This document shows, piece after piece, positions 35,452 through 60,742 of a DNA stretch of 64,000 nt (the stretch's first letter is position 1; each line of letters opens with the position of its first letter). The translations under genes were made by a program, and so were the position numbers. Origin of the DNA: an uncultured virus (IMG/VR IMGVR_UViG_3300020183_000017) (taxonomy: Duplodnaviria; Heunggongvirae; Uroviricota; Caudoviricetes). The notes beneath the pieces were generated by a model. That model ran no database searches. It had not been told where the DNA came from and saw only the letters and a list, made by a program, of their open reading frames with translations. Location: the IMG/VR virus record IMGVR_UViG_3300020183_000017. One strand, written 5' to 3'.

Positions 35452-36882
35452 GTGGCTGCAATTATTACAAATAAATTTCGCATTCACAATGCGCAATCTT
35501 TCAAAGAGGGCTTCAACGAGTCTGCGCCTACAAATATTTATCTAGGTATTGGTAGACCACAAGCATGGGTTAATGATAACATTCCAGACACACCATACGA
35601 CACAGTTGGTGATGAGTTTTATGCCTGGGACGATATGCTTGCTTTAAAGAGAATTCAATCAACAGATGTTTCATTATCAATCGTCCGTAGAAACTGGACT
35701 TCTGGTAAATTTTATGACATTTATCGTCATGATTATAGTGGAAGTGTTCCTGGTGTTAACATTGACTCTGGAGCACCTTCGTTACCAGCATCTTTATATG
35801 ATGCAAACTTTTATGTAGTTACTGATGAATATAACGTATATAAATGTATCAAGAATACAAGTAATGGTTCAGTTGTTGCTTCTACATTTAAACCAACAGG
35901 CACAGAAACAACTAAGATCACAACTCCAGACGGATACGTTTGGAAATATATGTACACTATTGCTCCAGCTGATGTTCTTAAATTCGTTTCTACAGATTTC
36001 GTTCCAGTTAAAACTTTAGGAATAAACCCAGGATCTACTGATTCATACTATAAACAGTATCTAGTTGAACAAGCAGCTGTAGATGGTGCGATTGAGCATA
36101 TTAAGGTTGATACATTTGGCTCAAACTATGTTGGTATCCCAGTAGTTTCAATTGTTGGGGATGGTATAGGCGCAACAGCAACAGCAGTTGTTGACGGTTC
36201 TACTAATAGTATCAGACAAATTACTATTAACACTCCAGGTTCTGGATATACATGGGCTCGTGTAACTATTGGCGCTCCAACAACAGGCACTGATAATGCT
36301 ACTGCTAGTGCTATTATTTCACCAAAGGGTGGTCATGGTTTTGACGCAGTTGAAGAACTTGGTGGTTTCTATGTAATGATGAACGTCCGTCTAGAATATG
36401 ATGATGGTGCTGGAGATTTCCCTGTTGACAATGACTATCGTCGTATTAGCTTAGTTCGTGATCCAACCAACTTTGGTACAGGTAACGTAGCAACACAAGC
36501 TACTTTAATTTCGAACAGAATTATTTCGTATTCTGCTGTTAGTGGAACATTTGCGATTGATGAAGAAGTTAAGGGTCAAACAAGTGGCGCAAGAGGAAGA
36601 ATCGTTTCTCTAAACACTGGTTCAACACCTAAAACTCTGCGCTATATTCAAACTAAAACAGATGGAACAACTCTTGGTGTTCCTGATCCAACAACTGGTA
36701 GATTATTCCAAGCTGGAGAAACTATTGTAGGCGCAACAACTACTGCACAGGGAACTATTCTTTCTATTGCAGATCCAGATGTTAACTCAGACAGCGGTGA
36801 TATTATCTATGTCGAAAATCGTCGCCCAATTAATCGCGCAGGTGATCAAATTGAAGATATTAAAATCATCGTTGAAATGTAA
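35452..36882 (+). CDS. 8: baseplate wedge gp8
   Basis: AIITNKFRI, VYKC, DGYVWKYMYT, GGHG and SGDIIYVENR motifs; GTG start with GGAG. Confidence 0.9.
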   Translation: MAAIITNKFRIHNAQSFKEGFNESAPTNIYLGIGRPQAWVNDNIPDTPYDTVGDEFYAWDDMLALKRIQSTDVSLSIVRRNWTSGKFYDIYRHDYSGSVPGVNIDSGAPSLPASLYDANFYVVTDEYNVYKCIKNTSNGSVVASTFKPTGTETTKITTPDGYVWKYMYTIAPADVLKFVSTDFVPVKTLGINPGSTDSYYKQYLVEQAAVDGAIEHIKVDTFGSNYVGIPVVSIVGDGIGATATAVVDGSTNSIRQITINTPGSGYTWARVTIGAPTTGTDNATASAIISPKGGHGFDAVEELGGFYVMMNVRLEYDDGAGDFPVDNDYRRISLVRDPTNFGTGNVATQATLISNRIISYSAVSGTFAIDEEVKGQTSGARGRIVSLNTGSTPKTLRYIQTKTDGTTLGVPDPTTGRLFQAGETIVGATTTAQGTILSIADPDVNSDSGDIIYVENRRPINRAGDQIEDIKIIVEM

Positions 36883-36928: not shown

Positions 36929-39900
36929 ATGGCTATTAACTTTAATGTTGCACCATATTATGATGATTACAGCGATGATGATAATTATCTAAGAGTTCTT
37001 TTTAGACCTGGATATGCAGTTCAGGCTAGAGAACTTACACAACTTCAGACTATTCTACAAAGACAAATCACCAGATTTGGTGATCATATGTTTAAGAATG
37101 GATCTCAAGTTATCCCAGGTAGTGTTAACCACGACTCGCTGATTCATTTTGCAAAACTAGAGAACCTTTATATTAACCAGACTGTATCATCATACATTCT
37201 GCAGTTTAGAAATAAAATTATTACTGGTTTGACTTCTGGTGTTAAAGCTCTTGTTATTGATACATCTAATTGTGATTGTATTGATCCAACTGAGCGTGAC
37301 ATTCCTACTTTCTATTACAAAATTGAACAGACTGGAACAGACGAAGTAACTAAGCGTTTTGTTCCAGGCGAAACTATAGTTGCATATGCTGCTGACAATA
37401 CTATTGAAAAAAACTATCGCCTAACAGAAAATCAACAAGCGGATATCTATGTTAATATCCGCTCTTTTGGTGATGGCGGATCTAATGCAACAACCTATAC
37501 TAATAATTCACAAACCGACGTTCTTGGTTATGGATTTGCTGTTGAAGTTAAAGAAGGTATCTATTACATTGATGGTTTCTTTGTTAGAAACCCAGAGATG
37601 CACCTTTATGTTGGTCGTTTTACACAGAACCCATCATTCAGAGTTGGGTTTAAAATTGTTGAATCTGTCGTAACTCCAGAAGAAGAACCACTACTTGCAG
37701 ATAATGCTCAAGGAACAACGAACTTTGCTGCTCCAGGCGCTCATCGTTACAGAGTTGAACTAAACCTAGTAAAACTTCCTTTAGATTCTACAGACGAAAT
37801 TAAATTTATTGAACTTCTACGTGTTAAGAATGGTAGGGTTCAAAACATTATTACTAAGTCTTCATATGCTGAATTAGAAAAAACATTAGCAAGAAGAACA
37901 TATGACGAATCTGGTAACTATGAAGTTAAAAAGTTTAAGTTAGCATCCAGAGAACACTTAAACAAAAATGGAACTGGTGTATATCCTCCTCTTCCACAGT
38001 TCGGAGACGCTATTCAAGGTCAAACTTACGGCGATGATGATAAGTTTGTAATTAGCGTTGATCCAGGAAAAGCGTATATTCAAGGATTTGAGATTGAGGC
38101 AACTTCTACACAATATGTAGATTTTAGAAAAGCAAGAGAGAACACTCTTACTGGCGATGAGGGTGGTCATATTGTAAGAGAAGATGATTATCCAATTCAA
38201 ACCCCAGTTGGAAACTACATTTTAATAAACAATGTTCATTCGTTCCCAGAGTTAACTACATTCCCAATTATTAATCTATATTCAGTTAGTAGAACACCAC
38301 CAAATGGATCTACTCTTACTGATGGTGTTCCACCTTCAACTTCTTTTAAAGTTGGTACTGCTAGAGTTAATGCTTTTCAGTTACATTCTGGTGATTACAC
38401 TGGCGCTGATGCGACTCAATATAAACTTGGTTTATTCGAAATTAAGATGGATGTTAATCCATCAACATTCGCAAATTATAATTTTGAGAAAGACGTTAAA
38501 TCTTTATCTCTAGCAACTGGAAGTTCTGGAATATTTACTGCTGATATTGTAGAGACTCAGTTAGTAATAGTTGGATCAGCAAGCGTTGCAAATAATGCAA
38601 CATCTGTTACTGGTGTTGGTTCAGTATTTACTGAACAAGTCGCTGTTGGTGATGTTCTATACATTGACGGAACACAAGTTGGTGTAGTTTCGACAGTTGA
38701 AAGCAACACATCAATAACATTAGCAAGCTCTGTTGGGGCTTCTGGCGCTAAGAGTGGTGTAGTTGGTGTGGCGAGATCAATAATAAGAGAGCCAAATTAT
38801 AATTATCTAGTTTATAGATCTGCATTCGACACAATTAAAACACTAAGAGGTCAAGATTCTTCTGGTAACGACACAATTAAATCTAGTCAACACACAGTAA
38901 GAAGAATAATCTCAGCAACCGCAGCGCAAGAAGGCGCAAATATTGTTTGGGCATTTACTCTTGCATCTCCTACTGAATTTTTCCAGTCTACACAAGATCT
39001 AGAGAACTACACATTAATTGATACAAACACAAAAGCGATTGTTCCAATAACGTCTTCGAACTTAACACTTGATGGTTCGCAGAAATTATTAACAATCAGT
39101 AATGTATCACCTGCTCTTACAGCAGGTAGAGAATATAAACTTGTTACTAGCATTCTACAAACTGGTGCGACTGCTGGCGAAAAAACAAAAACATTAATAA
39201 CAAATCACAGTCAAATTATTACTGGAAGAAAGAACGTAAGCGAACTTTCTTTCACATTAACTCATGCTGATGTTTTACGCATTAAAGATATTAAAGTTAA
39301 TCCAGGAAATTATGACACTTATGTTGAGACTAACTCTGTAAGTGTTCTTGACAAATATGTATTTGATGATGGTCAAAGACCAACACATTATCAGCAAGCT
39401 GTTCTTACCTTAAAGCCAAGCACAGCACCGCCAGCTGGCGCAGTAAAAATTATATACGATTACTTTAACCATACTGGTACGGGCAATTATTTCTCAGTTG
39501 ATTCTTACTCAGCCTCAATCGCTAATACAGATAATAATTTTGGATATGAAGATATTCCTTCTTTCCCAGTTAAGAAGTCAAACGGTGTAACTGAGACTGT
39601 TTTCTTACATGATGTAATTGATTATCGTCCAGTAATTTCTGGAGCTAATGGATTTACACCAGAGCTTCCTAAGATTGGTGAGGGATTCAACACAAGTATT
39701 GCGTATTATTTACCAAGATGGGATAAACTTGTTTTAGATTCAATTGGTCGTTTTAATGTTATTGTTGGTACACCAGCTAGAGATCCAGTAGAACCAAGAG
39801 ACCCTGTTGAGGGTATGGTTCTTGCTTCTGTTTACGTGCCAGCATATACAAAAACAGCTAATGATGTTCGCGTATTCCAGAGAGACAATCGTCGTTATAC

Positions 39901-42900
39901 GATGAAAGATATTGCTGCTCTAGAAAGAAGAATTCAAAATCTAGAATATTATGTTTCGCTAACTCTATTAGAAACAGAAACAGAAGCATTCCCAATTAAA
40001 GACAATGTTACTGGTCTTGATAGGTTTAAGAATGGTTTTATTGTTGATCAGTTTACTGGTCATGGTATTGGTGATGTAGTTAATGTTGACTACAGAATTG
40101 CTGTAGATTCAAAAAAACAAGAACTTCGCCCTATGCACTTTACTGATGCTGTGGATATTGTTGAAGACATTATTTCATCAGACCAAAGATTTGCATCTTC
40201 ATATAGAAAAGAAGGCGATATTATAACTCTTCCATATGATGAAGTATTATCAATCTTTAACCCATATGGAACAAGAACTATTGACGTAAACCCATATAAG
40301 ATTGGTGCGTTTAAAGGTGAAGTATTATTAACTCCAGAAGGCGACAACTGGAAAGATACAGATCGCAGACCAGACCTTTTAGTTCAAGATGATAATAACT
40401 TTGATGCTATTCGCTTTATGGCTGAACAGCTTGGTGTAACAGGAACACAGTGGAATGCATGGGTGACTCAATGGACAGGTAGCACAACCGATGCTGGTCC
40501 AGCTTTCTGGCAAGGAAATACGCAACTTCAAAACTTAACAACTGTTGATACTGGAGTTCAGTCAAGAGACGGTATCCAAACTTCTCTAACAAGCACAATT
40601 AACCAGCAAGATTATGGCGACAGAGTTGTCGATATTTCTTTTGCTGAGTATATGCGTGCAAGACCTATTGTTTTTGTCGCTAAGAACTTAAAACCAAGTT
40701 CAAAATTCTACACATTCTTTGATAACGAAGCAGTTTCTTCTTTCTGTCAACCAGCAGATATCTTTAGAGTAACAAGACTGTCTGGTGCAACATTTATGAT
40801 CTTTGACACTGAAGAAACAAGAAATAGAGTTGTTGCTACTGACGTAATAAGAACATATGAAGGTCAGGCTGAACCTGCTTTCCAAGTTGGTGATGTTCTT
40901 ACTAATGATGAACACACTCCAGTAGTCATTCAAACCATTAGTCATATTACTGATCAAGAAGGAGCAACTCAGTTTACATTGACTGTTAATAATATAACTG
41001 GACTAAGAGTTGGCCACCATGTTTCTTTATATAACTTGGCTCCTGGTAGAGTTTTAAATTTAACAAGAACTGTTACTGAGAAAATAAATGATCAGACTAC
41101 TATTAGAACATATAACGTAGGAACTTCTAGTGAAATTAACAACAGAATTTTTAAAATTGCTGCGATAAGTGGCACTACTATTACCTTAACAAATTTAGAC
41201 GGATCTAGAATTAGAGCATTTAGTTCTTACGATAGATCGAGCGCATATGCTGGTGCTGATGGTGGTTATCTAAGAAGATTACAAGCTACTGGTGTAGTAA
41301 TTTATGCTGGTATAATTACAGCTAGCGATGCAAACGGTCCAGTTACACAAGATATTCATATTTCTAACATTAGAAACGGATTTTCTATTGGAGAAAATCT
41401 AACTGGAACTTTAGTTTTTGATAACTCTGCTAGAAACCAAGTAACACTTACTTCTATTAATGGGTTGTCAACAGTTGGTTCTCTACCTGTTATGAAAGTT
41501 AGAGGCGATGCAGTAAGAACTGACGGGACTGGTGCGACAGCTGGTGTATTTAATCTTCCAAACACAGATACCATTAGATTCAGAACTGGCGAACGTGCAT
41601 TTAGATTAACTGACAATATTTCTAACAGCGATGCTGATTTTGACTCTAAGGGTGAAGCAACCTACTATTCAACAGGTGTTACTCTCTCAAGAGAAAGAAC
41701 CATTGTTAATAGTCGTCAAGCTAACTTTGTACAAGATCGTGTTTTTGAATCTATCCCTGTTCGTCGTGTTACAACTTCGCAGCGTGTGCTACAAGTTATT
41801 CAACCAAGACGTGGTCATGACCCACTAGCGCAGACATTTGTTGTTCAGTCTGTTGGTGGTATGTTTATCACATCAGTGGATCTGTACTTCTCAGAAGCTG
41901 GTAATCGTCCAGTTACAGTTGAACTAAGAACAACTGACAATGGTGTTCCTTCTACTAAGATATTACCATTCTCTGAAACCACAAAGAATCCTTCAGAGAT
42001 TAATGTTTCTGATAACGGAAGCGTCGCTACAAACTTTAAGTTTAGATCTCCAATTTATTTGGTTGACAACGAAAACTATGCTCTAATCGTTAAGACTGAC
42101 GAGCCAGGATGTCAAGTCTTTATATCTGAACTTGGAAAATCAGATATATTGACAGGAAATATTGTTACCAATCAACCACTAACTGGTTCTCTATATCTGT
42201 CACAAAACAGTAAAGAATTTGAAATTAATCCACTGTTCGATATGAAATTCAGAATGTATCAAGCTGAGTTTGATAATAGCACAATCGCTCAAGTTGATCT
42301 AAAAGCATTACCACCTAAGATAATGAATCTTAGAGATAATCCATTTGAGATTACTCCAGGTTCTGACATCATCAGAGTAAGAGCGCCAAGACACGGATTT
42401 GGTGCTGGTGATGTTGTTATGATTGATGGTATACAAGAATATATTACAGATACATTAGAATTAACAAGATATTACGGAACTAAGTCACAGTCGTTTGGTA
42501 TTCCAGCCAATTTATTAAATGGTGGACAAGTTGTTTTAGCTGAAGGTATTGACCAAGATTCTTTCTGCTTTAAATTACAAACTACTGATGATTATATTAA
42601 TCCTCAGACTGGTGAATCTCAACCAAACATATTAATTACTGGAGAAGCTGGAACAGAAACAACTGTTCAGCAGATTTTAGATCAGTTTGTTAAGGGCGAT
42701 TATGGTGGAAGTGGCATTACCTGCTCGAGACAATTAATCGTTGATTATCTGTTCTTAAAGAGCGATAACGTAGTTCCTGTAGATACAGAGTTAAAGTTTG
42801 AGGTTCAGGCAATTGATACTGATGGAACACCAAGTGGATTCCAATCAATAACTGAAAATAGTAATTTTACATTTAACTCAAGAAAGATTATTAGATCTTA

Positions 42901-44623
42901 TGAGAACGAAGCAGTCTTATCTTCTGCTACTGGACTAGTTCGTCCTTCAGTTTCTGTAAGAGCGAAGATAACTTCAAACAATGTTAATGTCTCTCCTGTT
43001 ATTGATTTGCAAAGACTTTCAGTTTTTGCGATTAGAAACTTAATTAACGATCCTGTTGAATCAGAAACTAATGTTATCGGTGTTGATAATAGATCTCTAT
43101 TAAGAGCAAACGATGTAACAGATTCCGACATCGACGCTGAACCAGCAACAGGAACAATCGGAGCATTCCATTACACTAACTTATTTGGCGGCAACCTAAC
43201 ATTGGGACCTGCGACATCAACCACCAGCTCAAGAACCTATACTGCACCAGGAACAACATATCGTTGGGACGGAACAGGAACAGCGCAAACTTCAGCGCCA
43301 TGGAAACGTCTAAGAGTTAGTGATGAGATTTATACAACTGCTCCAACTCCAGTTCTAATTGGTACTGTTACTGCAGTCACTGCTAGCGATTTAACAATTA
43401 ATACAATAACTCCAGCAACTATATCTGGGGATCAATTCCTAGTTAGAAGTAAGTATGTTTTTGGTATCGGAACATCGTTTACTACGGAAACTCCTGTTGG
43501 AACATTATTATATAATACTCAGAATCAGTTGATTGGTAAAGTTGCTCAAGTAACAGGAACAGATAACGGATATACGCTCGGTAATACATTGGTTGAGTTA
43601 GAATCTCTAGCGGGAGCATCAACAGTTGCAGTTTCTACTGATCCAGCAACCAGCTTTACTATCGGAACACCTGAAGCGAAACTATCCTTTTCTAACTCTG
43701 GTGGTTATGGTATTATAACAACTAATATTGATACTGCAGATAATCTGTTGGCTCTTGCGAAGCAGGGTAAGTATATTTACCTTTCTAATATGATTTCAGG
43801 AATTAATGGAAAATATCTTGTTTATACTGTAGTAACTTCTACTGATACAACAGTAAACATTGGTAATGCTGAAGATGATATTGTTACTCTAACGGTTTCG
43901 CCAGCATTTACTTTCCCACAAGGAGTTACTTCTTGCACTATTGATATGGTAAATGATTATCTGTACTTTAAGGGTGCTGGATATATTACTAACACAAGTA
44001 GCGCAAGCACTACTGTTACTGGTTCGGGAACAGCTTTCTTGAATCAAGTATCAGCTGGTGATGTGATTACTACACAAAGTTTTGGTGGTAATGCTTTTAC
44101 TGGTGGAGTGACTGGAACAATTATTGGAACTGTAGCAAATTTAAACAGCGAAACTTCTTTAGTGTTGGCTACTAATCCTTCTTTCTCTATTAGTGGTGTT
44201 TCAACTGAGTATTATATCAGAAAAAATGCACCTAACTGGAGAATTGATCAATTAGAAAAATTTGTTGAAGACTGGGCTCCTACAGGAACTTCTAACTATG
44301 CAAATTATATTACACGTCCTCTGGTTCTTTCAAATCCAGCTGACTCGTTAAAGATTCTGTTTGATAGTAATATTCCACAATTTACTAATCTCAAAGTTTA
44401 TTATAAGGCATGGACATCAGGAACTGATCCAAATACCCTAAATTACATTGATACAGGATTTACTACAGCTTCTAACGATGCGCTAGATGTTTTCTCTGAA
44501 CAAACAATTGACGTTCAAGATATAACACCGTTCACAAGCGCAATTATTAAAATCATTATGAAGTCTTCAGATCCAAGTAAAGTGCCTCGAGTTAAAAAAT
44601 TAAGATTAATCGCACACTCATAA
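36929..44623 (+). CDS. large virion structural protein (VrlC-like)
   Basis: FNVAPYYDDY, LFRPGYAVQARELTQLQ, APGAHR, ARRTYDESG, RFKNGFIVD and DPLAQTF motifs. Confidence 0.85.
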   Translation: MAINFNVAPYYDDYSDDDNYLRVLFRPGYAVQARELTQLQTILQRQITRFGDHMFKNGSQVIPGSVNHDSLIHFAKLENLYINQTVSSYILQFRNKIITGLTSGVKALVIDTSNCDCIDPTERDIPTFYYKIEQTGTDEVTKRFVPGETIVAYAADNTIEKNYRLTENQQADIYVNIRSFGDGGSNATTYTNNSQTDVLGYGFAVEVKEGIYYIDGFFVRNPEMHLYVGRFTQNPSFRVGFKIVESVVTPEEEPLLADNAQGTTNFAAPGAHRYRVELNLVKLPLDSTDEIKFIELLRVKNGRVQNIITKSSYAELEKTLARRTYDESGNYEVKKFKLASREHLNKNGTGVYPPLPQFGDAIQGQTYGDDDKFVISVDPGKAYIQGFEIEATSTQYVDFRKARENTLTGDEGGHIVREDDYPIQTPVGNYILINNVHSFPELTTFPIINLYSVSRTPPNGSTLTDGVPPSTSFKVGTARVNAFQLHSGDYTGADATQYKLGLFEIKMDVNPSTFANYNFEKDVKSLSLATGSSGIFTADIVETQLVIVGSASVANNATSVTGVGSVFTEQVAVGDVLYIDGTQVGVVSTVESNTSITLASSVGASGAKSGVVGVARSIIREPNYNYLVYRSAFDTIKTLRGQDSSGNDTIKSSQHTVRRIISATAAQEGANIVWAFTLASPTEFFQSTQDLENYTLIDTNTKAIVPITSSNLTLDGSQKLLTISNVSPALTAGREYKLVTSILQTGATAGEKTKTLITNHSQIITGRKNVSELSFTLTHADVLRIKDIKVNPGNYDTYVETNSVSVLDKYVFDDGQRPTHYQQAVLTLKPSTAPPAGAVKIIYDYFNHTGTGNYFSVDSYSASIANTDNNFGYEDIPSFPVKKSNGVTETVFLHDVIDYRPVISGANGFTPELPKIGEGFNTSIAYYLPRWDKLVLDSIGRFNVIVGTPARDPVEPRDPVEGMVLASVYVPAYTKTANDVRVFQRDNRRYTMKDIAALERRIQNLEYYVSLTLLETETEAFPIKDNVTGLDRFKNGFIVDQFTGHGIGDVVNVDYRIAVDSKKQELRPMHFTDAVDIVEDIISSDQRFASSYRKEGDIITLPYDEVLSIFNPYGTRTIDVNPYKIGAFKGEVLLTPEGDNWKDTDRRPDLLVQDDNNFDAIRFMAEQLGVTGTQWNAWVTQWTGSTTDAGPAFWQGNTQLQNLTTVDTGVQSRDGIQTSLTSTINQQDYGDRVVDISFAEYMRARPIVFVAKNLKPSSKFYTFFDNEAVSSFCQPADIFRVTRLSGATFMIFDTEETRNRVVATDVIRTYEGQAEPAFQVGDVLTNDEHTPVVIQTISHITDQEGATQFTLTVNNITGLRVGHHVSLYNLAPGRVLNLTRTVTEKINDQTTIRTYNVGTSSEINNRIFKIAAISGTTITLTNLDGSRIRAFSSYDRSSAYAGADGGYLRRLQATGVVIYAGIITASDANGPVTQDIHISNIRNGFSIGENLTGTLVFDNSARNQVTLTSINGLSTVGSLPVMKVRGDAVRTDGTGATAGVFNLPNTDTIRFRTGERAFRLTDNISNSDADFDSKGEATYYSTGVTLSRERTIVNSRQANFVQDRVFESIPVRRVTTSQRVLQVIQPRRGHDPLAQTFVVQSVGGMFITSVDLYFSEAGNRPVTVELRTTDNGVPSTKILPFSETTKNPSEINVSDNGSVATNFKFRSPIYLVDNENYALIVKTDEPGCQVFISELGKSDILTGNIVTNQPLTGSLYLSQNSKEFEINPLFDMKFRMYQAEFDNSTIAQVDLKALPPKIMNLRDNPFEITPGSDIIRVRAPRHGFGAGDVVMIDGIQEYITDTLELTRYYGTKSQSFGIPANLLNGGQVVLAEGIDQDSFCFKLQTTDDYINPQTGESQPNILITGEAGTETTVQQILDQFVKGDYGGSGITCSRQLIVDYLFLKSDNVVPVDTELKFEVQAIDTDGTPSGFQSITENSNFTFNSRKIIRSYENEAVLSSATGLVRPSVSVRAKITSNNVNVSPVIDLQRLSVFAIRNLINDPVESETNVIGVDNRSLLRANDVTDSDIDAEPATGTIGAFHYTNLFGGNLTLGPATSTTSSRTYTAPGTTYRWDGTGTAQTSAPWKRLRVSDEIYTTAPTPVLIGTVTAVTASDLTINTITPATISGDQFLVRSKYVFGIGTSFTTETPVGTLLYNTQNQLIGKVAQVTGTDNGYTLGNTLVELESLAGASTVAVSTDPATSFTIGTPEAKLSFSNSGGYGIITTNIDTADNLLALAKQGKYIYLSNMISGINGKYLVYTVVTSTDTTVNIGNAEDDIVTLTVSPAFTFPQGVTSCTIDMVNDYLYFKGAGYITNTSSASTTVTGSGTAFLNQVSAGDVITTQSFGGNAFTGGVTGTIIGTVANLNSETSLVLATNPSFSISGVSTEYYIRKNAPNWRIDQLEKFVEDWAPTGTSNYANYITRPLVLSNPADSLKILFDSNIPQFTNLKVYYKAWTSGTDPNTLNYIDTGFTTASNDALDVFSEQTIDVQDITPFTSAIIKIIMKSSDPSKVPRVKKLRLIAHS

Positions 44624-45098: not shown

Positions 45099-45422
45099 AT
45101 GGCAAACGTATTTAAAAATCAATTAAGAAGAAATGTAGGGTCAAGCGCTGAAACTCTTTATACAGTTCCTACTGGTTTAAAGTCAATTATCATTGAGCTA
45201 GATGTTTGCAACACAACTAACGGATCAGTGACTACTGATGTTTACATCACAAAATCTGCTTTAGATTATTATGTGGTAAAGGGTGCTCCAGTTCCAGTTG
45301 GTTCAGCTCTTCAAGTTATTTCAGGTCAGAAGATCGTACTTGAAGCTGGAGATACTCTTAAAATTAAATCTAGTATAGCAGCATCACTTGATGCAATCGT
45401 TTCAATCCTAGAGGATGTATAA
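45099..45422 (+). CDS. small beta-rich structural protein
   Basis: MANVFKN...LYTVP...KIVLEAGD. Confidence 0.75.
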   Translation: MANVFKNQLRRNVGSSAETLYTVPTGLKSIIIELDVCNTTNGSVTTDVYITKSALDYYVVKGAPVPVGSALQVISGQKIVLEAGDTLKIKSSIAASLDAIVSILEDV

Positions 45423-48400
45423 TGGCATATATCGGAAATTCAGTTGCTGATGTTTCTTCGGGCGCAAGACCTAGAGACGAATTTAGGGGCGACGGAGTCC
45501 AGCAAACATTTTTACTGTCTGACCCTGTTCCTGGTGGTTACACAAGTAATGTTACAGTTTTTGTTGAGAATGTTCCTCAACAGCCAGACGATGCATATAA
45601 AATAGTAACTCTTAAACGACTAATGCTAACTGGTCAGATTAATGATTTTGAAATAAACAAAATTATTACACAGTCAACAACAGCAGCCTCTGGTATAATT
45701 GTCAACTACGTGCAGAACAGTGGCTATGTTGATATTCTACAAACATCATCAGCGGATTTTATAGCCAGTGGCACTAGAATCGATTCTCAAAATACTGCAC
45801 TTATTGCTACTGGTTTTGTTGATTCAATACAAATTTTGTATTATTATGGATTACAATTTACTAGTGTTCCCGATATTGGTGCAGTAATTTATTCAATCAA
45901 TCTTGGTGGCTCTACGTATAACTTAGTTCCTTCTGCAGGATCAGTAACTCCAGATAGCCTCTCAGAAAATCTAAGAAATTTTGTAATTGATAAACATACT
46001 GCAACAAATAATCAAATTTCTTTCTCATTATCGCAACCAGAAAGTTATATTAACACCTTATTAGTAACAGTTAATGGTGAGTTTAAAACACCTGTTGAAG
46101 ACTATACATTAGCGACGACTGGTTCTGTAAAATCTGTAAGCATAATAAATCCTGGTATTGGATACGAATTAACACCTGCTATTTCTTTTACTGGTAATGG
46201 ATCTGGAGCAACAGCTAATGCTACTCTAGGAACTACTGGTATCGTAAAGGGAATAACAGTAACTGCTGGTGGTGATAATTATACTGTAGCTCCTGATGTA
46301 ACAATTAATGGTGGCGCTGGTGAAGGTGCAGAAGCAGTAGCAACTCTAGCAAACACAGGTAAAATTGCTTTAGTAACTGTAACAAATCCTGGCGCAAATT
46401 ATACGCAAGCTCCTTCTATTACATTCACTGGTGGTGGCGGATCAAGCGCAACTGCAACTGCATCTTTAACTTCAACTGGTTCTATTAAATCAGTATCTTT
46501 AAGTAATGCTGGTTCTGGATATTCAACACCACCAACTGTAAATTTATCAGGGGGTGGGGGAGAAGGAGCATCAATCGTTTCTGTTTTAGGATTTACTGTA
46601 GATACAGCAACAGTTGATAATGGTGGTTCTGGTTATACATCTGCTCCATCTATCTCATTTACTGGTGGTAATGGATCTAATGTTGCAGCTACAGCAGTAT
46701 TAGCATCTGCTGGTTCTCTAAAAACACTATCGTTAAGTAGTGGTGGTTCTGGATATACTGTTGCTCCAACTATTTCTTTCTCAGGTGGTAGCGGTTCTGA
46801 AGCAGCAGCGACAGCAACACTAGCAACTTCTGGTGGTGTTGTCTCAGCGACTGTTACTAGTGGTGGAACACTATATGAAGCTGCTCCATCTGTTTCTTTT
46901 TCTGGTGGTAATGGCTCTGGAACTACTGCTGATGCTATTTTAGCAACTGCAGGCGCAGTAAAATCTTTATCTTTATCTAATGTTGGCGCTGGTTATGAAT
47001 CAACCCCAACAATTTCATTCACAGGTGGTAGTGGTTTAGGAGCTACTGCTACTGCATCATTATCAGCAACTGCTAATGTAAAAAGAATTAATGTAACTAA
47101 TGGTGGCTCAAACTATGAAAATGCGCCTACTGTTACATTCTCAGGAGCAAGTGGTTCTGGGGCTACTGCTACTGCATTATTGTCAGCAACAGGTGGTATT
47201 AAACAAGTAAATATTACTAACGGTGGTGCTGGTTATACTAATGCACCAACTATCACATTTGGTGGAACTGGAACTGGTGCAACAGCAACAGCAACAGTTT
47301 CTGGTGGAACCATTACAGCGATTACTGTAACAAATGCTGGTTCTGGTTATTCAACAGCAAACGTAGTTATAACACCATTCCCTGGAGACACTATTACTAA
47401 TACTGCTACCAGCACTGCGGTGATTGGTTACTCAGTTGCTTCTATTAATGTAACATCAGCAGGTTCTGGTTATACGTCAGCTCCAAATATAGATATTACT
47501 GGTGATGGTACTGCAGCTGCGGCTACAGCAGTATTAGGATACACATTAGCAAGTCTAGATGTAACAGCAGGTGGTTCTGGTTATACGTCAGCTCCAAATG
47601 TAGTTATAACAGATACTGGTGCGCAAGCTGCTACTACTGGAGCAGTCGCATCAGCAACTCTTGGGTTTGCTGTAGGTTCTATTAGTATAACTGCAGCAGG
47701 ATCTGGATATACATCAGCGCCAACTGTAACGATTTCTGGTGGTTCTGGTTCTGGAGCAACAGCATCAGCAACTCTTGGGTTTGCTGTTGCTTCTTTAACA
47801 ATAACTAATGCTGGTTCTGGATATACTTCTGCTCCAACTATTTCTTTCTCAGGTGGTAGTGGTTCTGGAGCAGCAGCGACAGCAGTTCTTGGTTTTGCTG
47901 TAGATTCTATAACTATTACAAATAATGGCTCTGGTTATACTTCTGCTCCAACTATTTCTTTCTCAGGTGGTAGCGGTTCTGGAGCAGCAGCGACAGCTAA
48001 TTTAGCAGCGACAGGTTCAGTAAAATCTTTAGCAGTATTAATAGCTGGTTCTGGATATACTTCTGCTCCAACTATTTCTTTCTCAGATGGTGGCGGTTCT
48101 GGAGCAGCAGCGACAGCAGTTCTTGGATTCGGTATAGCAAGTATCGCAGTTAATACTGCTGGCTCTGGATATAATTTAAGTACAGCTGTAACAATAACAC
48201 CCCAAGCTGGAGATTCAAATACTACTACTGCTACAGCTGTTCCAACTTTAGGTAGAGCTGTTGCTGCAGTCTCTGTTATAAACTTAGGTTCTTCCTATAC
48301 AAGTGTTCCTTCAGTTTCTTTCTCTGGTGGTAATGGAGCAGGAGCAGCAGCAACAGCTAGACTTGGTTATAGCATTGCAAGCATTGCTGTTGTTAATCAA

Positions 48401-48985
48401 GGTTCTGGTTATGGTACTTCCCCAATAGTTGTTATTACACCACAGGTTGGAGATGTCCCTCTTCAAGCAGCAACAGCAGTTTCTACACTAGGTAGTTCTG
48501 ATTCTATTGAGTTCGTTACTCCAAGAAGTGCTGGTCAGAAAGTTGTTATTCAACATCTAGGGTTTAGCACAGTAAGTAGAAATGTCAATGAAGAAGTTGG
48601 AGCATTTACTCCTCAGCTTAAAATTGGTGGCGCAGCTTCTGGATTAATATATCTAAATAATATTGGTCAATATATAAAAACAGGTAGAATAGTAACAGCA
48701 AATATTCAAATTCGTTTGATTCAATTTGGTGTCTCTCTTGGAGAATTAACGATTATTGGATTACCGTATCAATCTTATGGTGTTACTCAACAATCTTTTT
48801 CCTTTAATTTTGATGAAACCACTGAACAATTTGGACCAGCAATTGCTGTTATCCCTCAATCTTCAAACACAATAAAACTGGGTTATACTAACTTGCTAAC
48901 AGGAAGGTGGGTTCCATTAACTCATACTGCTCTTACTAATTCTTCATTTATGAACCTAAGTTTTACATATATATCGGCTAAATAA
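45422..48985 (+). CDS. repeat-rich tail appendage/structural protein
   Basis: MAYIGN N-terminus and 20 copies of an approximately 39-aa GSGYTSAP repeat. Confidence 0.85.
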   Translation: MAYIGNSVADVSSGARPRDEFRGDGVQQTFLLSDPVPGGYTSNVTVFVENVPQQPDDAYKIVTLKRLMLTGQINDFEINKIITQSTTAASGIIVNYVQNSGYVDILQTSSADFIASGTRIDSQNTALIATGFVDSIQILYYYGLQFTSVPDIGAVIYSINLGGSTYNLVPSAGSVTPDSLSENLRNFVIDKHTATNNQISFSLSQPESYINTLLVTVNGEFKTPVEDYTLATTGSVKSVSIINPGIGYELTPAISFTGNGSGATANATLGTTGIVKGITVTAGGDNYTVAPDVTINGGAGEGAEAVATLANTGKIALVTVTNPGANYTQAPSITFTGGGGSSATATASLTSTGSIKSVSLSNAGSGYSTPPTVNLSGGGGEGASIVSVLGFTVDTATVDNGGSGYTSAPSISFTGGNGSNVAATAVLASAGSLKTLSLSSGGSGYTVAPTISFSGGSGSEAAATATLATSGGVVSATVTSGGTLYEAAPSVSFSGGNGSGTTADAILATAGAVKSLSLSNVGAGYESTPTISFTGGSGLGATATASLSATANVKRINVTNGGSNYENAPTVTFSGASGSGATATALLSATGGIKQVNITNGGAGYTNAPTITFGGTGTGATATATVSGGTITAITVTNAGSGYSTANVVITPFPGDTITNTATSTAVIGYSVASINVTSAGSGYTSAPNIDITGDGTAAAATAVLGYTLASLDVTAGGSGYTSAPNVVITDTGAQAATTGAVASATLGFAVGSISITAAGSGYTSAPTVTISGGSGSGATASATLGFAVASLTITNAGSGYTSAPTISFSGGSGSGAAATAVLGFAVDSITITNNGSGYTSAPTISFSGGSGSGAAATANLAATGSVKSLAVLIAGSGYTSAPTISFSDGGGSGAAATAVLGFGIASIAVNTAGSGYNLSTAVTITPQAGDSNTTTATAVPTLGRAVAAVSVINLGSSYTSVPSVSFSGGNGAGAAATARLGYSIASIAVVNQGSGYGTSPIVVITPQVGDVPLQAATAVSTLGSSDSIEFVTPRSAGQKVVIQHLGFSTVSRNVNEEVGAFTPQLKIGGAASGLIYLNNIGQYIKTGRIVTANIQIRLIQFGVSLGELTIIGLPYQSYGVTQQSFSFNFDETTEQFGPAIAVIPQSSNTIKLGYTNLLTGRWVPLTHTALTNSSFMNLSFTYISAK
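46109..48500 (+). repeat. intragenic array of 20 GxGY-xxxP-xxx-GG-ATA repeats
   Basis: Counted in the translation; near-identical DNA copies at about 46745, 47813, 47927 and 48047. Confidence 0.9.
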
Positions 48986-49255: not shown

Positions 49256-52200
49256 ATGGCTAAGAAACTATTAGCAACAGGCTTTAGAATTGATAGAGAT
49301 AATAATGCTATTTACATTAATGGCAATATTCTTCTACAAAGATTATTACTCATCACAGATGTAACTACAAACAGAATTATCTATAACTTTGCTGACGAAG
49401 GTTCTGGTGTTCTTACTAGAGAGTATAATGTAGATACGAATGAAACTAAATTCGTATTCAGACTTTCTCTAGCTGCACTTAATGTTGTAAACACAGACAT
49501 TCTCCAAATTCTTGTCGAGAATGAATCTACAGAAATTCGTCCAGAAGATCCATTTATTGATCCTGTTTCTAAGCTGCGTATTTCACAACCAGAAAACCTT
49601 ATCGATACTGACTTCGAATATGGTCTTCAGACTACTAAGTGGGAAACATTAAAACTTGTTAATAATGTCCCATCATTCTATTCTAAGAATGGCGCCAATG
49701 CAATTTCTGTATCCTCAGTACAAGCTACTCAAGGTTCAACTACTGTTTTAGTTAGTGCACCAGCGCACGGTTTGACCGCAGGTTCTCCTTTTGAAATTAC
49801 TGGTTTATCAAACTCTCAATTTGAGGGTGGTTATATTGTAACTTCTGTTATTAGCGTAAATCAATTTACATATCAGTTAACCTTTGCTCCGCTTAATACG
49901 CTAGAACTGTCAACAGTTTATACTGCAGTTATCCCTGGAGCTTTCTACTTCGGTTCTCAAATTACTGTTTCTGATATTGAAACAAATGGTCTTAATCCAT
50001 CACACTTAATCGTTAAGACTAAGTTCCCACATGGATTCTCATTAAACACACCATTCTATTTCTTAAACACTGTTGCTATCTATCGTCAAGATATTCCGAT
50101 CAATAATTTTAATGTTGACGATACTACAACAAACGAGAAAGCAACAAATTCAACATCTATTGCGGAATCTGTTTTAGATTACAGAATTACATCAGTTACA
50201 CCATATAGATTTGTTGGTAAAGGCGCACTGTATTGGGACAACACAAATTTAAACACAGATATTAATGCTCCGATTTCATCAGCAAGAATTGTTAATGGTG
50301 GTGCTGGTTATGTGTCAAATCCAGTAGCTACTCCTGTTTTCGTGTCAACAGCAGTATTTCCTACCGTAAACTCTGTAACATTTAACGCAACAGCAACAGG
50401 TGTTGTTGTTGGAACTGGAGCAAATGCTGGTAGAATAACTACTGCTGCGCACACATTTGTTACTGGCGATCGTGTTGAGTATCATATGGAAGGAGCTGCT
50501 GTAGCTTCTCTTGTTGGTAGCACATCTTTAATTAGAGATCCGCATAGATACGTTTCTAGTAATTTGTTTATGGGAGAACAATCAGTAACTGAAGGAACAG
50601 TTGGTTATTCACCATCAGCATTCGGTACTGGTGCTAGTTTCCAAGGTGCCTCTACAGGACAAACTACTGCGTTGTTATCTATGGACACATCTTCATATTA
50701 TGGTAGAATTGAACCTGGTATGGAAATTAGAGTATTTTCAATTAGTTCAACTACAACAACTGCTCCAACATTATTACTCCCAGAGGGAACAACAATTAGT
50801 TCTTTCAGCATCACAGGAACTTTATTACAAGTTGTGTTGGAGTTTCCATTTCCTCTATCTACTGGTATTAATTTTGCAGCGACAACTGCTTGGCATGCCG
50901 CATCTATCTCTTCAGCAAGAAGTACTATTAGAACAGACAATCATGGATTTGTTACAGGCGACAGAGTTTACTACAGAAGAGTTGTTACTGCAACTGGAAC
51001 AGTAAATGCTAACTCTCCAGCTCTAGCGACTATTGGTGGCTTAACTGATAGCACTTCTTATTTCGTCATTAGAATTGACTCAAGCACATTCAGATTAGCG
51101 ACAACTTATGTAAATGCTATGCGTGGTATTTACATTAAAATTACAAATATTGGATCTGGTGCGTTTAACTCTGTTAATGGTAGATTCTTGCCAGGACATG
51201 TATTTATTGCTAGTAGTGATTCCTTATATGCTAGAGTCTTATCATCAACAACATTACAGCTACATTCAACAAGAAATGATGCGTTAAACAATACTAATGT
51301 AATCACAATTACAACAGCGGGAACTGGAACTGCTCAAAGAATTTCAGCTGCTCCAGCTGTGTTCTCAACAACTGTTACTGGTTCTACTGTTTCTTCTATC
51401 TCAACAATAGATTCTGGTTCGAGTTATGATAAGAATGCTTCAATTACTGTTTCTCCATACATAGAAACTAGATCATTAAACTTATCTGGTTTTTCTGGAG
51501 GAACTAGAGCTTCTGGTACAACAAACTCACTGACATTTAAGACAAATTTATACGATCGTCCAATTTATGCAGGTATGCTTGTTAGTGGAACAGGTATTGC
51601 TGCAGGAGCTGTTGTTAACACAGTAAGCGTTCCTGATGTAAACAATAATATTGTTGTTCAGATTAGTGCTAACATTAATGCTAATATTACTCACGGTCAA
51701 CTAATTTCTTTCGCAGATAACCCAGGAACTACTGCCAACATCGTTCCTAACATTAGAGTATCTTGCTTTAATGTTCCAGGACATGGTTATAATTTAGGAG
51801 ATTCCTTGTGGTTCTATAATCCACCAGGAAACACATTCCCATCTTCTTTAACTGCTTGTAGAGTTTATTTTGTTTATCCAATCGATAACAATAACTTTGC
51901 TCTCCTTACAGCGTTAACATTCCCAGCGGGTTTTACTCAAGCTAATTCTAATGCAAGAGTAGTTCTAAACACAGGAACAGTTTTAAATGATAGAAAATTT
52001 GTAGCTACCAGATCATTTAGAATTACTGGAAACAATGCAACTTTTGTTCAAGTTGATGCTGATTTAAATGTTTCTTATGGTTTAAATGTTAATGATGCAT
52101 TTATTATTACAAATACAACAGGTAATGGAACTCTAGGTAGTACTACCATCACAAATGCTGTTGACGCAACAACAAACAATGCTGCTCATACGATCTACTT

Positions 52201-55200
52201 TGCTAGATCTATAACACAATCTGGAGCGAATTCTCTAAGAGAGTTGACATTCGCAACCACAACTACTGGTGCTGTTGTAAGCACAGGGGCTAGGTCTGGA
52301 GAAGTTTTCATTACTCCAATCGTTCTTTTAGCTGAATCCGATTCGATTTATATTCCGAATCATGGATTCTTAAATGATGATTATGTAATTTATACCGCAA
52401 CCAATACTTCAATTGAAGGGGTTAATCCTTATACTACTACTGCTGGCGTTACTTTAGCAGCTGCAGGATTTAATGGATATCTAATCGACAAAGTGTCTGA
52501 TGATCGTTTTAAAATAAAAAGAAGAGATACTGGGACTGTAGTTGACCTAAGAGGATTTGGAACTGGTACTCACACATTTACCAATATTAAATATTCAGCT
52601 TTAGCAAATACAGTAAATAAAACAAATCATGGTTTCCTAGCAAATCAAACAGTTATTTACGATTCTGCTGGCGCTCCTATTGTTGATGGTTTAAGAAATA
52701 CATTTGAGTATTTTATCAGACCTGTGAATATTGACAACTTTAGAGTTTCTACAACAACTCAAGAGTTAGCAATAGCAGCAGTTTCTAAAGCTGTAAATGC
52801 TTCATCGATGACCATTACATTTAATACTAATCACAGTTTAACTGTAGGAGATTCTTTAATTATTCGCGATAATCCAAATTCATACATGAACGGGTACTGG
52901 ACAGTTGCAACTGTTCCAGCAACACCTACAATTAATGCAGCGCCATCTACAATTACAGTTAGCATACCAGTATTTACCAACCCTGCTCCTGCAGTAACGC
53001 AAAATGCTGCTACTGGAGTTACGTATGGTATCGCGTATTCGTATGTAGATTTCGCTTTTGTTACTGCTAGACGTTCTGTTATCACTCCAGTGCCAGCAGG
53101 AAAAACCTTTACTACACTAAAAGCGATCGATCGTCTATTGGATAAGAAAACTCCATCAGCTAATGGTGGTGGTATTGTTACGAATCATCTAGTTAGATCT
53201 AGTGATGTACTACCTTTTGAGTCAAAAGTTTCTGCCGTAACTGGTGTAAATATTAGAACTGCACGAATTTTATTTAAACCTAGAGATATTCTGTCAGCAG
53301 TAAGAAACGATAATGTAGTTACAGTTACTACTACTCTACAACATGGTTACAATAATAACCAAACAGTAATGATCCAAGGGTTGCCAACAACTTCTTTCAA
53401 TACTGCATCTCCAGTAACAATTACTACAACTGGAACTAATACATTTACCTTCGCTCAGAACGGATCTAATGAAACTGCGACTATTGATGCTGATTCGATT
53501 GTTGTAATGGCGCTAACATCTGCTCAAGCTGCACTACTTTCTTCAGTCGGGCATGATGCTAATACTGGAGCAAATAATGTAACTCTAGCAGCTGGAGCTG
53601 TTAACGCTACATCAATTACTGCAACTGTTGCAACAGCAACTCAAATCTCTAATGTTACAAAAACATTAGTAGCGAATGCTGGTTTAGTTAATCAGTATAC
53701 ATTAATTGTTCCAGATACCATTGATCTAAAACCAGGTATGCCTGTTGTTGGTTCTGGAATTAACACCGATGCTAGAATCTTAAGAATTCTATCCCCAACA
53801 CAAATTGAGTTGACTGCTCCTAATACTGCTAATACTACAGCATCAACATATACATTCTTCAAGATTCAAGCAGGTCAAGAAGTTACTCAAGCTAGTACTA
53901 ATCTTTCTACTGTTGCTGGAGCAAATGCTACGGCAAATACCAGCACCTTTGTAGCTAAAGCTGGAACAGCTGCATTAATTAACAATACTTACATTAGTGG
54001 AGATAGATGTACTACAACTTTTGCATCAACTGCGCCAGAGGGTAATACATTTACAGTAGCGTCAACTTCAAATATCTTTACAGAATCTAGAGTTCAAACT
54101 CCAGCTACAGTTTCTTCACCTGCGCCATTTAATAGTAATGCAGTATTTTCTATTGCGAACCCATCAGTGTTTGTAACTACTGGCTTTACAACTAATACTA
54201 CTGGTACTGGTGTTTCAAACATTAGAGCATTTAAAGCAGACTCTAATAATGACGTATATACATTTAATGATGGTAGAGGAACAGGTATTCTAAATGGTAT
54301 TCGTGTACCTCAACACCCTTATCTAACTGGAGATCCAGTTCGTTATTTTACTAACGGTGGTAATGATATTGGCGGATTAACCAATGGTCAACTTTACTAC
54401 TTGATTAAAGCAAATGACAACTTTATTCAGTTTGCTACAAGTCTTGCAAATGCTCAAGCTGGAACTGCTATTGTTCTTACAGGTTATGGTTCTGGATCAC
54501 AGCAATATGTTAGAGGTAATGTTTTCTGGGGTAACACATCAACTGGATTAAACGTCGGTCATCATGTTAATGCTACTCAGACAACACCAACAAACTTTAC
54601 TACAGCACTACCACAAGGTTCTGTTGTTCTTTCTAAGAGAACGGTTTCTAGTGCACCAACAAACAGTTATAGAGGAGTTGCATTTGTAGTTGGTTTTAGA
54701 GATGCAAATAATAATCTAGATGAAACTGTTTATGCTTCTGATACTTACCGTGTTGGTACTATCGGAGCAACTACTGGGGATGAAGCTGTTATTCAAACCA
54801 GTGGTATTAGAGGTGGCTTCGGTTCTGTTGGAAACAGAATTTTCTGTGATGATACCACAGGATTAGCAGTTGGTATGGTACCACTTCTTGCAACAAACGC
54901 AGCAGGAACTGCTGGCGTGTTAGTAAATTCACCAGCAGCAACAGTTGTTACATCTATTGCAGTTGACGGTAAATCGTTTACTGTTAGCCAAACACCAAGC
55001 ACTGCACTATTCGGTACTAGATTAATTGCTGGCGCTGGTAGTGTTTCTAATACACTAGCATGTACTGCAACAACATCTGGAACGAATGTAATTACTACCT
55101 CTGGCAATACTTCAAATATTGAAGTTAACAATCCTGTAATCTTTACAGGAGCACCATTCGGAACTATCTTAGCTAATACTGTATACTACATTAAAACAAT

Positions 55201-59749: not shown

Positions 59750-60376
59750 ATGGCATATCTAGGAAGAGAACCAACTTACGGCATTTTTGAAGTTCAGACC
59801 CCTCCAGTGGACGGGTCTGAAACAACCTTCAATTTAGATTATAAAGTTTCTACTGCAGCATCATTGCTTGTTGTAAGAAATGGTCAAGTTCAAAAACCAG
59901 GAAGAGATTACAACATTTTAGCTGGCGGTAGTCAAATAATATTTACTACTCCACCAGTAGCAAACGGTAATGTTTTTATTATTTTCTTAGGTAAACAATT
60001 CTTAGTTTCTAGCGTTGCCGACGGTACAATAACACGAGAAAAGTTATCACAAGCGATCACTAGATCTTCAGTTGGTCAGTGGGAAGAAAAGACTTCCAAC
60101 TTTACTGCTGTTGCTGGTGGCTACTATTTCGTAAATACAGCATCAGCTTCTATTACTGTGACATTCCCATCTACAGCCTCTATGGGCGATACTATTAAAA
60201 TTGTGGATGCAGCTGGAACATTTACAACTAATATTTGCACGATTATTCTAAATGGTAAAAAACTAGCTGGATCAACAGATAATGTGGTCTTAAACGATAA
60301 CAGAGAAGCTATTACTTTTGTTTATTATAATGAGGCAAGAGGTTGGTTGTACGAAGAAAACCACAACTTTGCATAA
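59750..60376 (+). CDS. tail/baseplate-associated structural protein
   Basis: MAYLGREP; NG..QKP..DY domain; YFVNT...TVTFP...GD domain. Confidence 0.75.
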   Translation: MAYLGREPTYGIFEVQTPPVDGSETTFNLDYKVSTAASLLVVRNGQVQKPGRDYNILAGGSQIIFTTPPVANGNVFIIFLGKQFLVSSVADGTITREKLSQAITRSSVGQWEEKTSNFTAVAGGYYFVNTASASITVTFPSTASMGDTIKIVDAAGTFTTNICTIILNGKKLAGSTDNVVLNDNREAITFVYYNEARGWLYEENHNFA

Positions 60377-60403: not shown

Positions 60404-60742
60404 GTGGCTACAATATCTAATTTATACATTGATCAGGGAACCACATTCAGCACAATTATTGACTTGACAAATCAGGATGGAAGCCCGATGAACTTAACTG
60501 CGTATACTGTCCAGTCGCAGATAAGAAAATCCTATCAATCTTCAACATTTTTTAGTTTTACAGCTTCTGTTTATGGAGACCCACTAAAAGGAAAAGTTAG
60601 GTTGCAGTTGTCTCCAACAACATCTTCCAACATGAGAGCTGGAAGATATTTGTATGATATAGAGATAACAAATACATCGACTCAGGATAAATTCAGAGTC
60701 TTAGAAGGTATAGTAATAGTTTCACCAGAGATAACAAGATGA
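60404..60742 (+). CDS. conserved structural protein
   Basis: NLYIDQGTTF, GRYLYDIE and RVLEG.V.VSP motifs; GTG start. Confidence 0.75.
   Translation: MATISNLYIDQGTTFSTIIDLTNQDGSPMNLTAYTVQSQIRKSYQSSTFFSFTASVYGDPLKGKVRLQLSPTTSSNMRAGRYLYDIEITNTSTQDKFRVLEGIVIVSPEITR

Follow-up and report, generated by a model that had tools for sequence, protein, structure and literature searches.

The known structure closest to the element described here is domain I (residues 98-188) of gp18, the tail sheath protein of phage T4. In the parts of its structural description that deal with this domain (PMC3004832), it is presented as a six-stranded barrel with a helix, inserted into domain II, and is said to protrude outward from the tail, to make no inter-subunit contacts and to bind the baseplate and the retracted long fibres. 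The element itself is a tandem array of 20 repeats in P0001, a short tail-fibre-like protein with a very large insert, encoded on a stretch of 64,000 nucleotides from an uncultured virus (IMG/VR record IMGVR_UViG_3300020183_000017; Duplodnaviria, Heunggongvirae, Uroviricota, Caudoviricetes), the whole of which is referred to as the window. We read the array as ten small barrels, each made of two adjacent repeats, which are chained within one hairpin of the protein and serve as an exposed decoration or arm, and give this reading a probability of roughly 0.6.

Small exposed beta domains of the immunoglobulin (Ig)-like type, often in tandem, are found as decoration on the tail, fibre and head proteins of phages and are thought to be weakly adhesive. 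Fraser et al. are said to have described such Ig-like decoration domains on phage structural proteins in 2006. The array of P0001 differs from them in that its unit consists of two sequence repeats and in that it lies in a loop, neither terminally nor between domains.

A third relation is to the N-terminal domain of the T7 tail fibre gp17 (PF03906), to which domain 2 of the P0001 homologue P0127 matches with 26.0 bits (cut-off 25.2); the N-terminal position and the fibre context are also shared. Unlike the T7 protein, P0001 itself gave no match in searches of Pfam and of NCBIfam, the PF03906 match being absent because the domain is split by 793 residues, and its module is duplicated, each copy being interrupted at the same hairpin.

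The open reading frame (ORF) of P0001 (45422..48985, +; all coordinates are those of the window) encodes 1187 amino acids and is translated without stops. The array occupies amino acids 230-1022 (46109..48487, +) and contains exactly 20 tandem repeats of 37-42 amino acids, a count on which anchoring by the GxGY motif and a hidden Markov model (HMM) built from the units agree. All 20 units match this self-built HMM with independent E-values of 1e-12 to 1e-18, and all 20 also match a broader HMM built from 1259 units of other proteins. Tandem Repeats Finder, which picks up only the youngest part of the array, reports a period of 114 and 4.3 copies at 47637-48129.

Measured from the conserved Ala of strand 3 to the conserved Ile of the next strand 1, the linkers are of a long type (L, length 13), a short type (S, length 11, or 15 where they follow repeats with a longer loop) or a type T (length 12). 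Those preceding repeats 1 to 20 follow the order L L L L S L L L L L T S S S S S L S S S. Linker 5 (46586..46624, +) is thus short among long ones, linker 17 (48002..48046, +) is long among short ones, and linker 11 (VSGGTIT.., 47297..47338, +) is the T type. When the repeats are grouped into the units (1,2) to (19,20), here called D1 to D10, the linkers within the units are LLLLL in repeats 1-10 (D1-D5, 46109..47296, +) and SSSSS in repeats 11-20 (D6-D10, 47297..48487, +) without exception, and those between the units are L L S L L T S S L S. Linkers 5 (D2/D3), 11 (D5/D6) and 17 (D8/D9) all fall between units. In repeats 11, 13, 18 and 20 strands 2 and 3 are joined not by the Gly-rich loop but by a longer one of the ITP..GD.. 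type; these repeats are the first members of D6 and D7 and the second members of D9 and D10.

The array sits between ..DYTL and SIEFV.. of domain 2, the second domain of P0001. A profile of 105 positions, built from 35 homologues in which this domain is contiguous, matches P0001 in two pieces: positions 2-78 at amino acids 164-235 (76 bits) and positions 68-105 at amino acids 1018-1054 (24 bits). The N-terminal part of domain 2 (amino acids 164-229, 45911..46108, +) has ..DYTL as its last strand, and the C-terminal part (amino acids 1023-1054, 48488..48583, +) runs from ..SIEFV.. to the conserved neck HLGFSTVSR and aligns with an orthologue that has no array. With amino acids 1-229 of P0001, 27 relatives of 665-1336 amino acids (about 40% identity) were found, tail fibres whose C-termini are of the collar, endosialidase-chaperone or glycine-rich kind; their second N-terminal domain is contiguous and reads ..YTL, 2-5 residues, ..VTF.. 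and the conserved neck HLGFSTxSR. Domain 2 is contiguous in the homologues P0123-P0149 and in the fifteen more distant relatives L005-L019. Within the window the same profile matches P0002 (59750..60376, +), a fibre-like protein of 208 amino acids with PHROG tail-fibre matches, unbroken at amino acids 16-81 (25.7 bits). It matched none of 229 other proteins containing the array repeat.

Because the profile match is split, the homologues are contiguous and a syntenic orthologue lacks the array, the array of P0001 is a true insertion in a beta-hairpin of domain 2. Two thirds of P0001, 793 of its 1187 residues, are housed in a single hairpin of a domain that has about 100 residues, which illustrates how far loop insertion can go. 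A preliminary description of the window had already given the 20 repeats, their linker types, the positions of linkers 5, 11 and 17, the interruption of a domain by the array and the contiguous counterpart in the protein at 59750, and all of this agrees with what we found.

Domain 1 of P0001 (amino acids 1-163, 45422..45910, +), which has a weak match to the domain-2 profile at amino acids 19-62, carries an insertion of its own at the equivalent hairpin. The insertion comprises about 75 amino acids in P0001 and about 250 in the relatives L005-L019 of 640 amino acids. Since domain 1 and domain 2 are both interrupted there, the hairpin of the attachment module is a recurrent insertion site.

The array-less orthologue (L004, 392 amino acids) was found in IMG/VR next to the same downstream giant gene. 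It is 57% identical to P0001 in its N-terminal part and 51% in its C-terminal part, and in it a five-residue Gly-rich turn joins ..DDYTL to SIVF.. in place of the array. IMG/VR also contains an identical copy of P0001 (L001) and two orthologues of 1183 amino acids (L002 and L003) with 79-80% N-terminal identity, which share its linker pattern and whose 20 repeats correspond one to one with its own. Further 20-repeat forms from IMG/VR or the metagenome contigs are L025, identical to L001, and the truncated L026. P0001 and L002 are 77% identical in the array, 80% in the N-terminus and 87% in the C-terminus and differ by four single-residue indels; between these two no repeat was gained or lost. 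In searches of IMG/VR with N- and C-terminal alignments and of metagenome contigs no orthologue with another number of repeats was found, only forms with 20 or 0. The downstream giant gene (49256-59740) is conserved beside 20-repeat and 0-repeat orthologues alike.

The short form, without array and without shaft, is apparently the ancestral architecture, because the orthologue that lacks the array also lacks a shaft. This bears on the possibility that the array is an open rod, i.e. a single-file fibre shaft, with domain 2 left open within the single chain and its last two strands either carried with the knob to the far end or complementing a trimer neighbour. In P0001 neck and knob are indeed not separated by any other shaft, as they are in the homologues of 665-830 amino acids, and at both junctions the host strands resemble strands 3 and 1 of the repeat. 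However, the strands after the array and the neck are conserved as in the array-less relatives, an indication that the same domain is still completed by them, and the orthologue without the array does without a shaft as well. We regard an open rod as quite improbable.

The fold of the repeats was predicted with AlphaFold2. For full-length P0001 the mean predicted local distance difference test (pLDDT) was 62 and the predicted template modelling score 0.31, with most of amino acids 300-980 at 80-95; the flanking domains stayed below 50, and the MAFFT alignment had misplaced the array-less homologues. In the model each repeat has three strands (six per pair), and the "linker" is the hairpin turn leading from strand 3 of one repeat to strand 1 of the next.

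Comparison of the model with 48,161 representatives of the Protein Data Bank (PDB) gave tail sheath proteins as the top three entries: T4 gp18 (3foa_A, Z 6.6, and 3fo8_D, Z 6.5) and the sheath protein of phage KP1 (9ev2_S1, Z 6.0). In the first of these, residues 554-627 of the model, which are repeats 9 and 10, superpose on residues 99-188 of the chain with a root-mean-square deviation of 2.6 Å (72 aligned residues, 24% identity). In this superposition a unit of two repeats spans the whole of domain I (22-24% identity in the structural alignment). The next matches were to domains of the size of Ig or fibronectin type III domains (Z 4-5) and involved residues 297-388 of the model, which are repeats 3 and 4. 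A phmmer search of the PDB sequences gave 0 matches, the best E-value obtained there with a two-repeat profile was 0.052, with gp18 not listed, and a Foldseek search of the PDB with the full model gave nothing at E <= 1e-3.

Domain I of gp18 and the predicted units of P0001 would have in common that they are small barrels built of beta strands and inserted in a loop: the former in domain II and exposed at the virion surface (PMC3004832), the latter between two strands of their host domain. They differ in that T4 has one copy and P0001 ten in tandem, in that the host is a fibre and not a sheath protein, in that the alpha-helix of domain I is missing from the P0001 model, and in that the sequence similarity is not significant. 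To judge from the model, the likeness between repeat pairs and domain I is at the level of the fold only.

Which repeats belong together is also indicated by the confidence of the prediction. All four internal stretches with pLDDT below 50 (amino acids 380-389, 628-630, 787-794 and 870-902) lie at or just after the even-to-odd junctions 4/5, 10/11, 14/15 and 16/17; the first is located just upstream of linker 5 and the last at linker 17. From junction 4/5 to junction 16/17 the pLDDT means of ten-residue blocks at the even-to-odd junctions are 38, 84, 81, 73, 72, 55-62 and 57, and at the odd-to-even junctions the pLDDT is 79-95.

The statistics of the repeat family, collected from 812 runs in 229 related proteins, have the same period of two. 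Among runs of at least two repeats, 448 have an even and 161 an odd number. Runs of 6 were counted 63 times (5, 47 times; 7, 20 times), runs of 8 were counted 55 times (7, 20 times; 9, 19 times) and runs of 16 were counted 18 times (17, once), and the commonest length in this set was 2 (188 of 609). The autocorrelation of the spacing is 0.20-0.22 at lags 2, 4 and 6 as compared with 0.07-0.12 at lags 1, 3 and 5. Two copies alone occur in the window itself, at 36085..36312 (+), in an ORF for a gp8-like wedge protein described below (amino acids 212-246 and 250-287; repeat HMM).

In the 229 proteins, a direct-coupling analysis based on 2520 pairs of neighbouring repeats revealed a core triad within the repeat (z 5-12), the hairpin between strand 3 of repeat i and strand 1 of repeat i+1 (z 4.3-4.6) and contacts of the GY..P loop with the following repeat. 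Couplings between i and i+2 were seen at identical positions only, which is typical of a shared subtype rather than of a contact.

From the match of repeats 9 and 10 to gp18 domain I, the dips in pLDDT and the period-2 spacing it is most likely that the pairs are adjacent repeats, repeats 2k-1 and 2k forming one small barrel. We propose that in P0001 two small beta domains make up an attachment module at the N-terminus, to which the conserved neck and a C-terminal knob are added, and that 793 residues of a widespread repeat were inserted in one hairpin of the second attachment domain. Each pair of repeats would fold into a barrel of about 80 residues of the gp18 domain I kind, with entry and exit side by side. 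Domain I being itself inserted in a loop, its termini are adjacent, and ten barrels of this kind could therefore be chained in a loop while the host domain stays together; a long out-and-back rod would not be needed. The array would change by whole barrels, hence the even counts. The half with long and the half with short linkers would be two lineages of duplicated barrels, and the odd linkers and the "turn" would lie between barrels, where the linker type is less constrained.

As to function, we take the array to be a probable decoration or arm, exposed on a short fibre and weakly contacting the cell surface or further parts of the virion. It would then be an unusually large case of ordinary phage surface decoration, for which an array-less orthologue is available for comparison; the pair with and without array would bear on a possible role in adsorption or host range. 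For an abundant repeat that has no model in Pfam or NCBIfam, the proposal amounts to a working rule, namely that it is used in pairs resembling the exposed domain of the T4 sheath. The rule would account both for the even counts and for the occurrence of the repeat in loops of, among others, baseplate, neck and fibre proteins.

Several results weigh against this reading. The Z score of 6.6 is under the level of about 8 at which the notes to the search tool advise trust, no helix is present in amino acids 230-1022 of the AlphaFold2 model, and the repeat HMM scores at best a non-significant 1.5 bits against the gp18 sequence. The two halves of gp18 domain I, compared with each other and with the repeat consensus, gave z values of 0.8, 1.6 and 0.0. 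A coupling between strand 1 of repeat i and strand 3 of repeat i+1, which would close the barrel, was not seen in the direct-coupling analysis (maximal z 1.7). Odd and even repeats are alike in composition (total variation <=0.11), and couplings in and out of register are weak and differ (z <= ~4). AlphaFold2 applied to repeats 6-9 alone, a block that cuts across the proposed pairs, reached a mean pLDDT of 48.9, a value obtained with a shallow self-derived alignment of 23 rows, where shallowness and a wrong register would have the same effect. What makes the adjacent pairing most likely are the aligned ranges in the model, the pLDDT pattern and the family statistics. Finally, the reading leaves it to chance alone that the exceptional linkers 5 and 17 and the longer-loop repeats 11, 13 and 18, 20 are in mirrored positions; the loops may be a small hint of a fold-back at the level of the barrels.

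The preliminary description had built on this mirror symmetry. It let single repeats i and 21-i pair in an antiparallel rod of ten rungs, with a unique turn at linker 11 and a compensatory swap of long and short linkers at positions 5 and 17. The antisymmetry of the linkers, the even count and the insertion in a loop fit such a rod; however, adjacent repeats superpose together on one solved barrel domain, and both the pLDDT and the spacing in the family have a period of two repeats. Runs of two are the commonest among those of at least two, and two copies stand alone in the gp8-like protein. The turn is also not unique: its length of 12 is shared by 991 of the 2479 linkers counted in runs of at least 6, more than any other length in the family, and the motif class of linker 11 occurs in 104 of 1319 repeats of 120 other proteins, often several times per array. 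We consider pairing of i with 21-i very improbable. What stands of the proposal is that the array is placed in a loop and grows by pairs, as the even counts predicted for the homologues bear out; the pairs are most likely neighbours.

Mirrored linker types, also predicted for the homologues, gave no signal beyond the controls. In 155 even arrays of at least 8 repeats, the linker lengths correlate across the true centre with r 0.20 and across centres shifted by 1-3 with r 0.10-0.21; the fraction of equal linkers is 0.60 at the true centre versus 0.45-0.58 at the shifted ones. Within P0001 the mirror pairs (i, 21-i) are not more similar than any pair taken across the two halves (protein identity 0.451 versus 0.441, DNA identity 0.601 versus 0.592). 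By our own arithmetic the chance that two exceptions, one per half, are in mirrored positions is about 1/9, or 1/4 if they are confined to the linkers between domains, where both are indeed found. The mirrored position of the odd linkers is thus most likely a coincidence, and a compensatory swap is not supported.

A symmetry of whole barrels would be another matter. In a two-row stalk D1-D5 would lead out and D6-D10 back, with Dk facing D(11-k), linker 11 at the tip and linkers 5 and 17 opposed to each other. The ends of the array must meet, the host hairpin having almost no spacer; the linker pattern is perfectly antisymmetric, including a long entry and a short-like exit; and it is kept, with one-to-one repeats, in orthologues of 80% identity. 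The longer-loop repeats are mirror-placed inside the second half, 11 with 20 and 13 with 18, as is the case in 10 of the 210 possible sets, a figure calculated post hoc. On the other side, barrels with adjacent termini bring the ends together anyway, the pattern is inherited in the three orthologues, which thus add no independent support, and the chance estimate of 1/4 to 1/9, the missing mirror signal in the homologous even arrays and the ordinary similarity of the mirror pairs argue against a stalk of barrels as they do against one of single repeats. Such a stalk is in our opinion unlikely, and that linkers 5 and 17 and the loops of 11, 13 and 18, 20 are truly compensatory within it is a decidedly long shot. 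If true, this would mean that a rod of protein had been constructed within a loop and that its two rows are obliged to co-evolve.

The repeats have not diverged independently of each other. The 72-nucleotide bodies of repeats 6 (46745..46816, +), 15 (47813-47884), 16 (47927-47998) and 17 (48047-48118) are 91-95% identical in DNA, and their linkers are 44-76% identical. Repeat 6 shares 91-94% with the other three; for the body of repeat 17 the identity to those of repeats 6, 15 and 16 is 93-95%, and linker 17 is nearest to linkers 1 and 8 (71%). The bodies have thus evolved in concert: the DNA comparison shows that gene conversion or duplication took place recently, in direct register and across both halves, and that the histories of linkers and bodies are separate. 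The bodies of repeats 6, 15, 16 and 17 form a sharp-edged gene-conversion tract within a coding repeat.

Copying of a block of two repeats from 5-6 to 16-17 was considered as the source of both exceptional linkers, as repeats 5-6 and 16-17 match ungapped over 234 nucleotides with 75% identity. This was rejected: the match largely reflects equal lengths and the shared bodies, and the linkers are only 60-61% alike.

The repeat as such is widespread. It is a beta repeat of 39 residues with the motif GxGY..P, found at E <= 1e-10 in 4173 proteins among 8000 candidates scored and at E <= 1e-3 in 10,273 cluster representatives. The PHROGs in which it occurs carry the annotations baseplate wedge, head closure, tail fibre and virion structural protein, and the 76 structural matches in BFVD at E <= 1e-3 are mostly cyanophage structural proteins. 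Neither Pfam nor NCBIfam, both of which were searched, has a model covering the repeat. A literature search on the motif yielded no paper, and one on cyanophage fibres and sheath domains no description of the P0001 array. Within this family the array of P0001 is set apart by its place in the hairpin of a fibre attachment domain, and only a few runs reach or exceed its length: of the 812 runs, 7, its own included, have 20 repeats and 12 are longer. The repeat is also present in bacterial and archaeal proteins that are annotated solely via neighbouring domains (cupredoxin, F5/8 type C, Kelch).

The gp8-like wedge protein mentioned above (ORF 35452..36882) matches Phage-Gp8 of Pfam (PF09215) with 64 bits. 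In BLASTP its amino acids 3-221 and 441-473 align with residues 10-246 and 298-331 of T4 gp8. Its two repeats (amino acids 212-287) sit in a segment of about 170 residues that is extra relative to T4 gp8.

P0001 is a tail-fibre-like virion protein of a T4-like cyanophage, with PHROG matches to virion, baseplate and tail-fibre families and with genes for gp5-, gp6-, gp7- and gp8-like baseplate proteins as neighbours. The ORFs upstream match T4-type baseplate proteins, namely the tube cap, the gp5 hub-lysozyme and gp6-, gp7- and gp8-like wedge proteins. A tblastn search of phage genomes with P0001 found nine records, all nine of Synechococcus phages, none of which covers more than 11% of the query. 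Because of the T4-type baseplate matches upstream and the tblastn matches to Synechococcus phages only, the window is the part of a T4-like cyanophage genome in which baseplate and fibres are encoded. The C-terminal knob of P0001 (amino acids 1055-1187, 48584..48985, +) is common to other fibre proteins: in tblastn it is 28% identical to the "tail fiber protein" of the Synechococcus phages Sf-CH5 and Sf-CH8, and the C-terminus of the homologue P0126 resembles it.

Giant virion proteins of 2564 and 3494 amino acids are encoded on either side of P0001; the PHROG matches of the two ORFs (36929-44623 and 49256-59740) have no assigned function or are called "virion structural protein". Downstream of P0002 an ORF of 112 amino acids (60404-60742) matches phrog_3304 (L-shaped tail fibre assembly) at 2e-23 and may encode a fibre chaperone.

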